Assembly (NCBI RefSeq): GCF_003334765.1
Contig: NZ_QOWT01000003.1
Source of the DNA: Escherichia coli
GTDB lineage: Bacteria > Pseudomonadota > Gammaproteobacteria > Enterobacterales > Enterobacteriaceae
Strand: one strand, 5' to 3'
Length of the DNA stretch: 64,000 bases
Part shown: in pieces, positions 3,603-63,904 of the stretch
Position numbering within the stretch: the stretch's first letter is position 1
Layout of the letters: each line of letters opens with the position of its first letter
Program-made: the position numbers and the translations under genes
Notes under the pieces: model-generated
What the model was told of the DNA's origin: nothing
Databases searched by the model: none
What the model saw: the letters and a program-made list of their open reading frames with translations, nothing else

Positions 3603-3679
<77 letters not shown>

Positions 3680-5073: not shown

Positions 5074-5171
5074 GCCGGATGCGGCGTGAACGCCTTATCC
5101 GGCCTACAAATCATGCAAATCCAAAATATTGCAGGAGTTATGTAGGCCTGATAAGCGTAGCGCATCAGGCA
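5074..5171. repeat. REP/BIME element (two inverted REP units)
   Basis: gccggatgcggcgtgaacgccttatccggcctaca and tgtaggcctgataagcgtagcgcatcaggca, a typical REP consensus in opposite orientation. Coordinates approximate. Confidence 0.8.
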
Positions 5172-8148: not shown

Positions 8149-8165
8149 TTCGCGATCGCAAGGTA

Positions 8166-8370
8166 AAAAAAAGCACCGCAATTAGGCGGTGCTACATTAA
8201 TCACTATGGACAGACAGGGTAAATGTACAGGAAGTGAAAAAAGGTAGCTTTGCTACCATGGTCTGAATCGCAGACCAATTGCAAACACAACAACACAACA
8301 TCACAACCGTAAGCCAAAAGTTCACCAGAACACGCATTCCGATAAAACTTTTCGTTCCGGCTCAGGAAGT
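8166..8370 (-). ncRNA. gcvB: GcvB small regulatory RNA, divergent from gcvA
   Basis: The reverse complement matches the GcvB sequence as I recall it (ACTTCCTGAGCCGGAACGAAAAGTTTTATCGG ... GCACCGCCTAATTGCGGTGCTTTTTTT), including the GU-rich region and terminal terminator. Ends approximate. Confidence 0.9.
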
Positions 8371-26541: not shown

Positions 26542-26908
26542 GTCGACAGGGAGTCAGACAACGAAGTGAACATCAGGATGATGACACTTCTGCAGGACAC
26601 ACCAGGATGGTGTTTCAGGGAAAGGCTTCTGGATGAAGCGAAGAGGATGACGCAGGACGCGTTAAAGGACACCTCCAGGATGGAGAATGAGAACCGGTCA
26701 GGATGATTCGGTGGGTCAGGAAGGCCAGGGACACTTCAGGATGAAGTATCACATCGGGGTGGTGTGAGCAGGAAGCAATAGTTCAGGATGAACGATTGGC
26801 CGCAAGGCCAGAGGAAAAGTTGTCAAGGATGAGCAGGGAGCAACAAAAGTAGCTGGAATGCTGCGAAACGAACCGGGAGCGCTGTGAATACAGTGCTCCC
26901 TTTTTTTA
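26542..26908 (+). ncRNA. csrB: CsrB regulatory RNA (CsrA-sequestering sRNA)
   Basis: About 367-nt non-coding stretch starting GTCGACAGGGAGTCAGACAACG, with six exact CAGGATG repeats plus about ten further GGA-containing variants (AAGGATG, CTGGATG, GAGGATG, CAGGAAG), ending in the hairpin gggagcgctgtgaatacagtgctccc followed by TTTTTTT. Confidence 0.93.
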
Positions 26909-26952
26909 TTCCTGCTATCCTTCGCGGCAGTTTTTCTTATTGAGGTTGCTTT

Positions 26953-37414: not shown

Positions 37415-39649
37415 ATGGTTGCGGTAAGAAGTGCACATATCAATAAGGCTGGTGAATTTGATCCGGAAAAATGGATCGCAAGTCTGGGTATTACCAGCCA
37501 GAAGTCGTGTGAGTGCTTAGCCGAAACCTGGGCGTATTGTCTGCAACAGACGCAGGGGCATCCGGATGCCAGTCTGTTATTGTGGCGTGGTGTTGAGATG
37601 GTGGAGATCCTCTCGACATTAAGTATGGACATTGACACGCTGCGGGCGGCGCTGCTTTTCCCTCTGGCGGATGCCAACGTAGTCAGCGAAGATGTGCTGC
37701 GTGAGAGCGTCGGTAAGTCGGTCGTTAACCTTATTCACGGCGTGCGTGATATGGCGGCGATCCGCCAGCTGAAAGCGACGCACACTGATTCTGTTTCCTC
37801 CGAACAGGTCGATAACGTTCGCCGGATGTTATTGGCGATGGTCGATGATTTTCGCTGCGTAGTCATCAAACTGGCGGAGCGTATTGCTCATCTGCGCGAA
37901 GTAAAAGATGCGCCGGAAGATGAACGTGTACTGGCGGCAAAAGAGTGTACCAACATCTACGCACCGCTGGCTAACCGTCTCGGAATCGGACAACTGAAAT
38001 GGGAACTGGAAGATTACTGCTTCCGTTACCTCCATCCAACCGAATACAAACGAATTGCCAAACTGCTGCATGAACGGCGTCTCGACCGCGAACACTACAT
38101 CGAAGAGTTCGTTGGTCATCTGCGCGCTGAGATGAAAGCTGAAGGCGTTAAAGCGGAAGTGTATGGTCGTCCGAAACACATCTACAGCATCTGGCGTAAA
38201 ATGCAGAAAAAGAACCTCGCCTTTGATGAGCTGTTTGATGTGCGTGCGGTACGTATTGTCGCCGAGCGTTTACAGGATTGCTATGCCGCACTGGGGATAG
38301 TGCACACTCACTATCGCCACCTGCCGGATGAGTTTGACGATTACGTCGCTAACCCGAAACCAAACGGTTATCAGTCTATTCATACCGTGGTTCTGGGGCC
38401 GGGTGGAAAAACCGTTGAGATCCAAATCCGCACCAAACAGATGCATGAAGATGCAGAGTTGGGTGTTGCTGCGCACTGGAAATATAAAGAGGGCGCGGCT
38501 GCTGGCGGCGCACGTTCGGGACATGAAGACCGGATTGCCTGGCTGCGTAAACTGATTGCGTGGCAGGAAGAGATGGCTGATTCCGGCGAAATGCTCGACG
38601 AAGTACGTAGTCAGGTCTTTGACGACCGGGTGTACGTCTTTACGCCGAAAGGTGATGTCGTTGATTTGCCTGCGGGATCAACGCCGCTGGACTTCGCTTA
38701 CCACATCCACAGTGATGTCGGACACCGCTGCATCGGGGCAAAAATTGGCGGGCGCATTGTGCCGTTCACCTACCAGCTGCAGATGGGCGACCAGATTGAA
38801 ATTATCACCCAGAAACAGCCGAACCCCAGCCGTGACTGGTTAAACCCAAACCTCGGTTACGTCACAACCAGCCGTGGGCGTTCGAAAATTCACGCCTGGT
38901 TCCGTAAACAGGACCGTGACAAAAACATTCTGGCTGGGCGGCAAATCCTTGACGACGAGCTGGAACATCTGGGGATCAGCCTGAAAGAAGCAGAAAAACA
39001 TCTGCTGCCGCGTTACAACTTCAATGATGTCGACGAGTTGCTGGCGGCGATTGGTGGCGGGGATATCCGTCTCAATCAGATGGTGAACTTCCTGCAATCG
39101 CAATTTAATAAGCCGAGTGCCGAAGAGCAGGACGCCGCCGCGCTGAAGCAACTTCAGCAAAAAAGCTACACGCCGCAAAACCGCAGTAAAGATAACGGTC
39201 GCGTGGTAGTCGAAGGTGTTGGCAACCTGATGCACCACATCGCGCGCTGCTGCCAGCCGATTCCTGGAGATGAGATTGTCGGCTTCATTACCCAGGGGCG
39301 CGGTATTTCAGTACACCGCGCCGATTGCGAACAACTGGCGGAACTGCGCTCCCATGCGCCAGAACGCATTGTTGACGCGGTATGGGGTGAGAGCTACTCC
39401 GCCGGATATTCGCTGGTGGTCCGCGTGGTAGCTAATGATCGTAGTGGGTTGTTACGTGATATCACGACCATTCTCGCCAACGAGAAGGTGAACGTGCTTG
39501 GCGTTGCCAGCCGTAGCGACACCAAACAGCAACTGGCGACCATCGACATGACCATTGAGATTTACAACCTGCAAGTGCTGGGGCGCGTGCTGGGTAAACT
39601 CAACCAGGTGCCGGATGTTATCGACGCGCGTCGGTTGCACGGGAGTTAG
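37415..39649 (+). CDS. relA: GTP pyrophosphokinase ((p)ppGpp synthetase I)
   Basis: 744-aa ORF matching RelA, with the RelA/SpoT synthetase domain, TGS and ACT. Confidence 0.96.
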   Translation: MVAVRSAHINKAGEFDPEKWIASLGITSQKSCECLAETWAYCLQQTQGHPDASLLLWRGVEMVEILSTLSMDIDTLRAALLFPLADANVVSEDVLRESVGKSVVNLIHGVRDMAAIRQLKATHTDSVSSEQVDNVRRMLLAMVDDFRCVVIKLAERIAHLREVKDAPEDERVLAAKECTNIYAPLANRLGIGQLKWELEDYCFRYLHPTEYKRIAKLLHERRLDREHYIEEFVGHLRAEMKAEGVKAEVYGRPKHIYSIWRKMQKKNLAFDELFDVRAVRIVAERLQDCYAALGIVHTHYRHLPDEFDDYVANPKPNGYQSIHTVVLGPGGKTVEIQIRTKQMHEDAELGVAAHWKYKEGAAAGGARSGHEDRIAWLRKLIAWQEEMADSGEMLDEVRSQVFDDRVYVFTPKGDVVDLPAGSTPLDFAYHIHSDVGHRCIGAKIGGRIVPFTYQLQMGDQIEIITQKQPNPSRDWLNPNLGYVTTSRGRSKIHAWFRKQDRDKNILAGRQILDDELEHLGISLKEAEKHLLPRYNFNDVDELLAAIGGGDIRLNQMVNFLQSQFNKPSAEEQDAAALKQLQQKSYTPQNRSKDNGRVVVEGVGNLMHHIARCCQPIPGDEIVGFITQGRGISVHRADCEQLAELRSHAPERIVDAVWGESYSAGYSLVVRVVANDRSGLLRDITTILANEKVNVLGVASRSDTKQQLATIDMTIEIYNLQVLGRVLGKLNQVPDVIDARRLHGS

Positions 39650-39664
39650 GCCGAAATTTGCTCG

Positions 39665-39707
39665 TATCTACAATGTAGATTGATATATACTGTATCTACA
39701 TATGATA
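39665..39707. promoter_or_regulatory. mazEF promoter with alternating-palindrome operator
   Basis: atctacaatgtagattgatatatactgtatctacatatgatag immediately upstream of mazE; overlapping palindromes typical of the MazE/MazF autoregulation site. Coordinates approximate. Confidence 0.65.
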
Positions 39708-39726
39708 GCGGTTTGAGGAAAGGGTT

Positions 39727-39975
39727 ATGATCCACAGTAGCGTAAAGCGTTGGGGAAATTCACCGGCGGTGCGGATCCCGGCTACGTTAATGCAGGCGCT
39801 CAATCTGAATATTGATGATGAAGTGAAGATTGACCTGGTGGATGGCAAATTAATTATTGAGCCAGTGCGTAAAGAGCCCGTATTTACGCTTGCTGAACTG
39901 GTCAACGACATCACGCCGGAAAACCTCCACGAGAATATCGACTGGGGAGAGCCGAAAGATAAGGAAGTCTGGTAA
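39727..39975 (+). CDS. mazE: Antitoxin MazE (type II TA, AbrB/SpoVT fold)
   Basis: 82-aa [30 protein letters not shown]...; exact MazE. Confidence 0.97.
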
Positions 39976-40310
39976 TGGTAAGCCGATACGTACCCGATAT
40001 GGGCGATCTGATTTGGGTTGATTTTGACCCGACAAAAGGTAGCGAGCAAGCTGGACATCGTCCAGCTGTTGTCCTGAGTCCTTTCATGTACAACAACAAA
40101 ACAGGTATGTGTCTGTGTGTTCCTTGTACAACGCAATCAAAAGGATATCCGTTCGAAGTTGTTTTATCCGGTCAGGAACGTGATGGCGTAGCGTTAGCTG
40201 ATCAGGTAAAAAGTATCGCCTGGCGGGCAAGAGGAGCAACGAAGAAAGGAACAGTTGCCCCAGAGGAATTACAACTCATTAAAGCCAAAATTAACGTACT
40301 GATTGGGTAG
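39975..40310 (+). CDS. mazF: Toxin MazF (ACA-specific mRNA interferase)
   Basis: 111-aa [39 protein letters not shown]...; start overlaps the mazE stop. Confidence 0.97.
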   Translation: MVSRYVPDMGDLIWVDFDPTKGSEQAGHRPAVVLSPFMYNNKTGMCLCVPCTTQSKGYPFEVVLSGQERDGVALADQVKSIAWRARGATKKGTVAPEELQLIKAKINVLIG

Positions 40311-40380
40311 TGTTACTAACTCACTTCTATTCTGGTCACAGGTTTCCACCTGACAGACCCGCAATTTTCAGGACAATTCA

Positions 40381-41172
40381 ATGAATCAAATCGACCGTTT
40401 GCTCACTATTATGCAGCGCCTGCGCGATCCGGAAAACGGCTGCCCGTGGGATAAAGAGCAGACATTTGCCACCATTGCGCCTTACACCCTTGAAGAAACC
40501 TACGAAGTGCTGGACGCCATCGCCCGTGAAGATTTTGACGATCTTCGCGGTGAACTGGGCGATCTGCTATTCCAGGTGGTGTTTTACGCGCAAATGGCTC
40601 AGGAAGAAGGGCGCTTTGACTTTAATGATATTTGCGCTGCTATTAGCGATAAATTAGAGCGTCGCCATCCGCATGTTTTTGCTGATAGTTCTGCCGAAAA
40701 CAGTAGTGAAGTGCTTGCCCGTTGGGAGCAAATCAAAACCGAAGAGCGCGCGCAGAAAGCGCAGCATTCGGCGCTGGACGATATTCCTCGTAGTTTACCG
40801 GCTTTAATGCGTGCGCAAAAAATCCAGAAACGTTGCGCCAACGTTGGCTTCGATTGGACGACGCTTGGTCCGGTAGTCGATAAAGTCTACGAAGAGATCG
40901 ACGAGGTGATGTACGAAGCGCGGCAGGCTGTTGTCGACCAGGCTAAACTGGAGGAGGAAATGGGGGACCTGCTGTTTGCCACGGTTAATCTGGCTCGCCA
41001 TTTAGGGACGAAAGCAGAAATCGCATTGCAAAAAGCGAACGAAAAATTCGAGCGTCGTTTTCGCGAAGTGGAGCGTATTGTTGCCGCGCGTGGACTGGAA
41101 ATGACAGGTGTTGACCTCGAAACAATGGAAGAAGTCTGGCAACAGGTAAAACGGCAGGAAATTGATCTCTAA
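40381..41172 (+). CDS. mazG: Nucleoside triphosphate pyrophosphohydrolase MazG
   Basis: 263-aa ORF matching MazG (tandem MazG domains), third gene of mazEFG. Confidence 0.93.
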   Translation: MNQIDRLLTIMQRLRDPENGCPWDKEQTFATIAPYTLEETYEVLDAIAREDFDDLRGELGDLLFQVVFYAQMAQEEGRFDFNDICAAISDKLERRHPHVFADSSAENSSEVLARWEQIKTEERAQKAQHSALDDIPRSLPALMRAQKIQKRCANVGFDWTTLGPVVDKVYEEIDEVMYEARQAVVDQAKLEEEMGDLLFATVNLARHLGTKAEIALQKANEKFERRFREVERIVAARGLEMTGVDLETMEEVWQQVKRQEIDL

Positions 41173-41384: not shown

Positions 41385-43037
<1,653 letters not shown>

Positions 43038-46439: not shown

Positions 46440-46658
46440 CTACAAATTCTGTGGCATTAATTTTTCGCTGGAGTGAAAATTATTGCGGTAAAGTTTGGTA
46501 GATTTTAGTTTGTATAGAGTTATTTTAAATATTTACCTTTTTAATCAATGGATTAAGTGCTCTTTAACATAATGGATGTGTTGTTTGTGTGATACTATAA
46601 AGTTGGTAGATTGTGACTGGCTTAAAAAATCATTAATTAATAATAGGTTATGTTTAGA
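46440..46658 (+). promoter_or_regulatory. CRISPR leader (AT-rich)
   Basis: AT-rich stretch ending ...cattaattaataataggttatgtttaga immediately 5' of the first repeat; the distal repeat is the degenerate one, so transcription runs on the + strand. Confidence 0.6.
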
Positions 46659-47053
46659 GTGTTCCCCGCGCCAGCGGGGATAAACCGGCAAAAACCGGGC
46701 AATCGCAAAAAGGCGTAATGTGTTCCCCGCGCCAGCGGGGATAAACCTGTGTTTGCGGCATTAACGCTCACCAGCATTTCGTGTTCCCCGCGCCAGCGGG
46801 GATAAACCGACGTGGTCATGGGTGCTGCTGTTGCAGAGCCAGTGTTCCCCGCGCCAGCGGGGATAAACCGAGCAGATACACGGCTTTGTATTCCGTGCGC
46901 CCGTGTTCCCCGCGCCAGCGGGGATAAACCGAATAGCAATAGTCCATAGATTTGCGAAAACAGGTGTTCCCCGCGCCAGCGGGGATAAACCGGAGCCTGA
47001 CGAGACTACTGAGGCCGTTCTGTCGAGTTCCCCGCGCCAGCGGGGATAAACCA
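46659..47053 (+). CRISPR. Type I-E CRISPR array, 7 repeats and 6 spacers, no cas genes in window
   Basis: 29-bp repeat GTGTTCCCCGCGCCAGCGGGGATAAACCG starting at 46659, 46720, 46781, 46842, 46903, 46964 and 47025 (exact 61-bp period, 32-bp spacers); the last repeat is degenerate (GAG..., final base A). Positions cross-checked against ORF-track frames that translate the repeats. Confidence 0.97.
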
Positions 47054-47523
47054 CCATATAACCCGTTATCTCTTTCTCAAGTTTTTATATTAGCAGTACT
47101 TGTAATAAGCAACATATCCACGTAACACCTCATGTTCAAAATAGTTCTCCATGCCAGAGAGGTTCACAATTATCGATACAAAAAATTAAATTTAATCAAA
47201 GTGTTATTTGTATGATTCTTAAATCGTTAAGAAATTTTAATCTATTATTTTTTTAATATTGAATTAATGCCTGTTAATTTTTTCTTTAGAATAACAGTAT
47301 ATTTTTTAAGCTTGTTATTCATTGGTTAAGTAATAAATCTGGAAGTTTGTCTTTGTTTTGAGGCTAATGAGTGGTTTTACATAACCGCCTCTATACGCTG
47401 TTGATGAATAGTTCTTATGAATAAAGATATCCAGTTCATACTTTAAGTGAAAATTGATAAAGTGCGATTCGTATTGTCTTTTATTCTAAAGACATCGAGT
47501 GTAGTTAATATTCCTTGTAAAAA

Positions 47524-63487: not shown

Positions 63488-63751
63488 ATATTGCCGGATA
63501 AATTAAACGCCTCTGTCAGAAATGATGGGGGCGTTTTTATTTTGCGAGCAGTATTCCTGATTTTAAACGTGAACGCCGCTGGAAGAATTATCAGGTATAG
63601 AATGGCGTCGGGTGCTTGAGGCTGTCTGGCGTTAAGCATTCGCGAGGTTCCAGATGGACAAAAGCCCCAGGCGATATTTCTATCAACCTGAGGCTTACGT
63701 TCGAACCCAAACAATTCGAATGTTAGTCTCTTCTTTGCAGGGAGGCAAGAC

Positions 63752-63904
63752 ATGCTGACAAAATATGCCCTTGTGGCAATCATAGTGCTGTGTTTTACAG
63801 TACTGGGATTCACGCTGATGGTAGGCGACTCGTTGTGTGAGTTGAGTATCAGAGAACGTGGTATGGAGTTTAAGGCAGTTCTCGCTTACGAATCGAAGAA
63901 GTAG
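63752..63904 (+). CDS. Hok/Gef-family type I toxin-like small membrane protein (50 aa)
   Basis: Not in the ORF track (under 60 aa). ATG at 63752 preceded by GGAGG 6 nt upstream; product [50 protein letters not shown] has one TM helix, the conserved LCE motif and the C-terminal AYES motif of Hok/Gef proteins. Confidence 0.75.

Follow-up and report, generated by a model that had tools for sequence, protein, structure and literature searches.

The segment at positions 39650-40353 of the window, i.e. of the whole 64,000-nucleotide stretch of DNA that was analysed, is almost certainly the type II toxin-antitoxin cassette mazEF (chpA) from the Escherichia coli chromosome, present as the K-12-identical allele. 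This reference allele belongs to a system that has been studied intensively, and it is as such already known; the first-pass annotation had rightly called the module well characterised, as this is the textbook E. coli pair with a published operator. The value of the re-examination lay in the one-base overlap of the two genes, the three-site operator with its shared arm, the antisense RNA and the exact boundaries of the accessory cassette. The coordinates of the features are listed in Table 1.

Table 1. Features of the mazEF region and of the remaining window (strand as reported; a point denotes a feature without strand).
Feature	Position	Strand	Basis or remark
relA, (p)ppGpp synthetase gene	37415-39649	+	ORF list and RefSeq annotation of the colinear K-12 region
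mazEF cassette, insertion/deletion unit of about 704 bp	39650-40353	+	alignment with three empty sites
Operator region 'cab', three MazE-dimer sites, "alternating palindrome"	39661-39710	.	match to published oligonucleotide
Published site 'c', GTATCTACAATGTAGATTG	39664-39682	.	contains the 15-bp palindrome 39666-39680; PMC4333400
Published site 'a', TTGATATATACTGT	39680-39693	.	ATATAT palindrome inside; PMC4333400
Published site 'b', ATATACTGTATCTACATAT	39685-39703	.	PMC4333400
Third arm	39692-39703	.	second GTATCTACA copy and ATCTACAT; inside published site 'b'
mazE, antitoxin gene	39727-39975	+	82 aa
mazF, ACA-specific endoribonuclease toxin gene	39975-40310	+	111 aa
aMEF (ameF, b4844), 400-nt antisense RNA	39616-40015	-	MG1655 RefSeq 2911051-2911450, mapped via blastn alignment
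mazG, nucleoside triphosphate pyrophosphohydrolase gene	40381-41172	+	ORF list, RefSeq annotation
pyrG	41400-43037	+	gene after mazG
ES036 small RNA	5107-5149		Rfam, 46.5 bits
GcvB small RNA	8165-8370	-	Rfam, 199 bits
CsrB small RNA	26551-26910		Rfam, 380 bits
sok antitoxin match	63610-63767	+	Rfam, 113 bits
Hok-family ORF, intact, 50 aa	63752-63904		next to cysH

Identity of the pair and layout of the locus

MazE matched the Pfam family MazE_antitoxin (PF04014) at 4.6e-14 over residues 6-51, and MazF matched PemK_toxin (PF02452) at 6.4e-24 over residues 10-109. With the NCBIfam equivalog models NF007312 (MazE) and NF007386 (MazF) scores of 196.2 and 227.4 bits were obtained, compared to curated cut-offs of 113 and 120, respectively. 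Solved E. coli chains were matched over the full length of both proteins (1ub4 and 1mvf by MazE; 3nfc, 5ck9 and 1ub4 by MazF), and PDB entries 2mrn and 2mru were matched by MazE residues 2-50. The DNA at 39600-40400 shared 100% identity with many E. coli chromosomes, among them those of K-12 derivatives, and RefSeq annotates relA, mazE, mazF and mazG in the matching strains. The profile search for MazF/PemK and MazE/AbrB domains that had been suggested as a check thus found both, above the curated equivalog cut-offs. As the Pfam families, the equivalogs, the PDB chains and the DNA identity to K-12 all agreed, the earlier statement that the identification is unambiguous at the protein level was confirmed.

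MazE consists of a DNA-binding domain at the N-terminus, of the AbrB/SpoVT type (residues 6-51), followed by a C-terminal MazF-binding tail. The residues K7, R8, W9, N11 and R16, which contact the DNA (PMC4333400), were all retained in the translation. Glu24 of MazF (E24), whose exchange for alanine yields an inactive mutant (PMC5888573), was retained as well. Neither a frameshift nor a substitution relative to the K-12 MazE and MazF proteins was present. From the identity to the characterised K-12 proteins we infer that this MazF has ACA-specific RNase activity, that it is neutralised by MazE, and that MazE is proteolytically labile.

The closest known system is the mazEF locus of E. coli K-12 (chpAI/chpAK; b2783/b2782; PDB 1UB4). 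It has the same DNA over 39600-40400, the operator and the aMEF region included, the same flanking genes relA and mazG, and the same proteins (WP_000581937.1 and WP_000254738.1), and no difference occurred within the locus. The window as a whole was colinear with 2.887-2.951 Mb of strain MG1655 in reverse orientation, with an identity of 99.8-99.97%. The two differed in that the window has an intact hok gene beside cysH and a single initiator tRNA-Met (tRNA-fMet) gene (3603-3679, minus strand), while in MG1655 there are three of them in tandem (metZ, metW and metV). Because of the single tRNA gene, the window was taken to come from a close relative of K-12 and not from MG1655 itself.

K-12 has a second MazEF-like pair, chpBIK (ChpS/ChpB), with the same folds (an AbrB-type antitoxin and a PemK/MazF toxin) and likewise an antitoxin-first operon. 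It was therefore considered whether the pair in the window is this paralogue, chpBI-chpBK, or another pair of the MazF/PemK family, rather than mazEF proper. The ChpS and ChpB models did match, although weakly: MazE reached 34.6 bits with ChpS, for which the cut-off is 101, and MazF 55.2 bits with ChpB, for which it is 129, whereas the MazE and MazF equivalogs scored far above their own cut-offs. The sequences of the two pairs are distinct, and chpBIK sits at a different chromosomal locus from mazEF, while the pair in the window lies between relA and mazG in a locus identical to K-12 mazEF. With both equivalog models below their cut-offs and with this genomic position, identity with the ChpBIK paralogue was refuted, and the chance that the pair is anything other than mazEF proper is negligible.

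The parD (kis-kid) system of plasmid R1 and the pemIK system of R100 have homologous toxins, and the Kid structure 1m1f matched MazF at 7.6e-09. In contrast to the mazEF locus of the window, to which they are only distantly related in sequence, they are plasmid-borne systems for post-segregational killing. They share an antitoxin-bound operator that is tuned by the toxin:antitoxin ratio (PMC4333400).

The order relA-mazE-mazF-mazG, which the first-pass annotation had described as a module directly after relA and before mazG, was borne out by the open reading frames and by the RefSeq annotation. The span given there, 39665-40310, encloses the operator arms and both genes. The relA gene upstream of mazE was intact and encodes 744 amino acids. 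The distance from the relA stop codon to the start of mazE was 77 nt, and that from mazF to mazG 70 nt. In the K-12 derivative ER1709, relA is split by an IS2 insertion (a relA1-type allele); as relA of the window is intact, read-through transcription from relA into mazEF would differ between such strains.

The antitoxin gene came first, with the toxin gene directly 3' of it and tightly coupled, as is the case in the MazEF family. The mazE stop codon TAA occupies 39973-39975 and the mazF start codon ATG 39975-39977 (junction ...TGG TAA TGG...), so that a single base is shared. An overlap of one codon had been reported; it is only 1 nt long (TAATG). This one-base junction behind an antitoxin-first gene is compatible with translational coupling. 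A Shine-Dalgarno-like GAGGA was found for mazE at 39714-39718, and a Shine-Dalgarno-like AAGGA for mazF inside the 3' end of mazE, upstream of the mazF ATG.

Operator, promoters and antisense RNA

The spacer between relA and mazE contained a perfect 7+1+7 palindrome of 15 bp (ATCTACA-A-TGTAGAT) at 39666-39680, with arms at 39666-39672 and 39674-39680. About 0.01 matches to this pattern would be expected in a shuffled 64-kb window. A second inverted repeat reuses the middle arm: over a length of 8 nt, ATGTAGAT at 39673-39680 pairs with ATCTACAT at 39694-39701, and the two arms are separated by 13 nt. In addition, the direct repeat GTATCTACA was present in two copies, at 39664-39672 and 39692-39700, and ATATAT/TATATA palindromes occurred at 39683-39689, with ATATAT at 39683-39688. 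The significance of the arrangement was estimated with 20000 dinucleotide-preserving shuffles of the 77-nt relA-mazE spacer. A 7+7 inverted repeat whose arms were no more than 3 nt apart occurred in 2.2% of the shuffles, while such a repeat together with a second one sharing the middle arm was obtained only once in 20000, and the shared-arm arrangement is therefore not due to chance.

Zorzini et al. 2015 used four oligonucleotides, termed 'cab', 'c', 'a' and 'b', for ITC and NMR, and 'cab', of the sequence CTCGTATCTACAATGTAGATTGATATATACTGTATCTACATATGATAGCGT, was shown by ITC to bind MazE (PMC4333400). The first 50 nt of published 'cab' matched the window exactly at 39661-39710. Site 'a' was the one used for the structural model of the MazE(1-50)-DNA complex, PDB 2MRU (PMC4333400). 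Judged by their sequence, the repeats upstream of mazE constitute the autoregulatory operator published for mazEF. The proposed comparison with published MazE binding sites thus gave an identical operator, and the view that the repeats are typical of toxin-antitoxin autoregulation was upheld.

The description of these repeats as overlapping palindromes was correct only in part. The first of the two strings named in the first-pass annotation is the true 15-bp palindrome; the second, tatctacatat (39693-39703), is not a palindrome, as its reverse complement is atatgtagata. There are two inverted repeats that share one arm, not separate overlapping palindromes. The two strings fall in sites 'c' and 'b', and the central site 'a' with its ATATAT palindrome had been missed.

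In a review that summarises Marianovsky et al. 2001, the operator is described as an "alternating palindrome", whose middle part pairs with either the upstream or the downstream part. The shared-arm inverted repeats fit this description, since the arm at 39673-80 can pair on both sides, with 39666-72 or with 39694-701. The letters a, b and c that the review gives for the 2001 palindrome do not map obviously onto those of the 2015 oligonucleotides, and the two sets may not coincide.

The block 39664-39708 was invariant in three alleles that diverge by 1-3% elsewhere (four sequences in all), and substitutions flank it at 39657, 39659, 39661 and 39709. With four sequences this is weak evidence, but it is consistent with functional constraint on the operator.

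The same review of Marianovsky et al. 2001 gives two promoters, P2 and P3, 13 nt apart, and a Fis site upstream. A sigma-70 consensus scan of 39400-40500 picked out no promoter at the operator, and only weak promoter-like matches were obtained, at 39702-39731, 39830-39857 and 40350-40377. As a guess, TACAAT (39668-39673) and GATATA (39682-39687) might serve as -10 elements; this candidate pair was considered for P2 and P3 because the implied starts would be separated by about 13 nt, the distance given for these promoters. Similarly, GGCCGAAATTTGCTC at 39649-39663 might, by our own reading of the consensus, resemble a Fis site, and three positions of this putative site vary among alleles. The terminator scan detected no terminator-like site on the plus strand in 39400-40500, and hence none between relA and mazE.

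The antisense RNA aMEF extends from the first 41 nt of mazF through the whole of mazE and the operator into relA, of which it covers the last 34 nt. It was absent from the first-pass annotation and is already in the literature. According to Van Gundy et al. 2022, the aMEF promoter is non-canonical, knockdown of aMEF leads to less of a ~400-nt mazE transcript and to less MazE and MazF, and the regulation is independent of RNase III (PMC8749433). A 146-aa open reading frame on the minus strand (39696-40136), antisense to mazE as well as to the 5' part of mazF, is most likely mechanical. It was rejected as a gene because its start codon is TTG, because it starts upstream of the aMEF 5' end (40015), and because none of the records examined annotates it.

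Other toxin-antitoxin loci and features of the window

The colinear annotation of MG1655 listed no second type II pair, and a scan of eight of the other small annotated proteins of the window with NCBIfam matched no toxin-antitoxin family. On these two grounds the statement that the window holds no type II pair apart from mazEF was retained.

A type I hok/sok locus was found at 63610-63904, adjoining cysH at the end of the window. The Hok open reading frame scored below the NCBIfam cut-offs (57.7 vs 89 for HokA and 41 vs 73 for the Hok family), and RefSeq annotates a Hok/Gef family protein for it in many strains. Homology to MG1655 stops at 63754; in that strain only sokX is annotated there, on the strand opposite to the Rfam match.

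A CRISPR array of seven repeats with the core GTGTTCCCCGCGCCAGCGGGGATAAACC and a period of 61 was present at 46655-47054, between queE and ygcE, and its counterpart in the K-12 derivative ER1709 is annotated as a CRISPR direct_repeat. No cas genes were found within the window.

The accessory cassette between relA and mazG and its proposed role

Alignment with the three empty sites showed that mazEF is inserted or deleted as a unit. The cassette comprises the promoter, the operator, mazE, mazF and 43 nt of 3' flank, and it was missing in 1007 of 5426 complete E. coli genomes (18.6%). In the empty sites an unrelated spacer of 63 bp comes after the relA stop codon, and then the shared leader of mazG, CCTGACAGACCC...ATG. 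The 5' region of mazG at 40354-40380 is common to the window and to strains lacking mazEF. At the other end, the cassette begins exactly after the stop codon of relA, which results in a clean replacement junction. The G+C content was 45.7% in the cassette, 53.8% in relA and 50.8% in mazG. This accessory status had gone unmentioned in the first-pass annotation; it is already in the literature.

The 63-bp spacer of the empty sites (540-650 in the example of an empty locus) has the look of an intrinsic terminator or attenuator placed between relA and mazG. In it, a G+C-rich hairpin of 12 bp precedes a T-rich run (TCTTTT), and the fold has a free energy of -37.9 kcal/mol (z-score -5.3). A search of the spacer for homology to the cassette ends, such as a target duplication or remnants, gave scores no better than those of shuffled sequence.

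Fraikin et al. 2020 described relA-mazG as an undisturbed operon where mazEF is absent, with which the presence or absence of the cassette agrees. These authors also reported that in Salmonella the place between relA and mazG can be taken by a parDE system, and that the route by which toxin-antitoxin cassettes integrate is still unelucidated. It would be a bold speculation, and a very improbable one, that the clean junction records an unrecognised site-specific mechanism which targets such cassettes to the relA-mazG spacer, with the hairpin spacer as a possible recognition element.

The position next to relA has also been interpreted in a different way, namely that mazEF is a host-integrated regulator of the stress response and of programmed cell death, tied to relA and ppGpp, with its position being adaptive. 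Co-transcription with relA and mazG and a link to ppGpp have been reported or proposed in the literature, and the lack of a terminator-like site between relA and mazE agrees with this. On the other hand, the cassette is missing in the 1007 genomes mentioned above, in which relA and mazG are joined by the 63-bp spacer. Moreover, Fraikin et al. 2020 stated that there is no functional link with the neighbouring cistrons and that deletion of five toxin-antitoxin systems caused no fitness defect under stress, and the spot can be taken by parDE in Salmonella. We consider such an integrated role unlikely.

Somewhat less probable still is a function of mazEF mainly as an anti-phage abortive-infection module. 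A review reports that infection loads of P1 were higher in a strain deleted for mazEF and that T4 ADP-ribosylates MazF, both of which would agree with such a function. However, a scan of MazE, MazF and MazG against PADLOC-DB v2 matched no family at E <=0.001, and the neighbours are housekeeping genes and do not form a defence island.

The mechanism that can be drawn up for the locus follows the literature. MazF dimers would cut single-stranded RNA at ACA and would be inactive in the MazF2-MazE2-MazF2 complex. As the labile MazE is reported to be degraded by ClpAP and Lon, a halt in expression would free MazF. MazE dimers would bind sites c, a and b and repress P2 and P3, with stronger repression by the MazE-MazF complex. 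MazF at about 1:1 with MazE is expected to enhance operator binding and a large excess to abolish it, which resembles conditional cooperativity. Transcription would be activated by Fis from its site upstream of the operator, and aMEF would raise the level of the mazE transcript and of the MazE and MazF proteins. The genes relA and mazG would be co-transcribed with mazEF as a polycistronic transcript.

MazF may also cleave its own mRNA. By direct count, two ACA sites were present in mazE and nine in mazF, and four of the nine lie inside ACAACAACAAAACA at 40090-40103. Nikolic et al. 2018 gave the same counts for the two genes (PMC5888573), while the seven sites stated for mazF by Van Gundy et al. 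2022 (PMC8749433) disagree with the nine counted here.

The role of mazEF is disputed; a reversible or stress-induced arrest of growth, programmed death, the exclusion of phages and selfish addiction have all been put forward (Fraikin et al. 2020). The pattern of presence and absence among E. coli genomes favours an accessory cassette of the addiction type rather than a component integral to the stringent response. In the reading we favour, mazEF would be an accessory cassette of addictive character that was inserted between relA and mazG, and its RNase would cause a mainly reversible arrest of translation.
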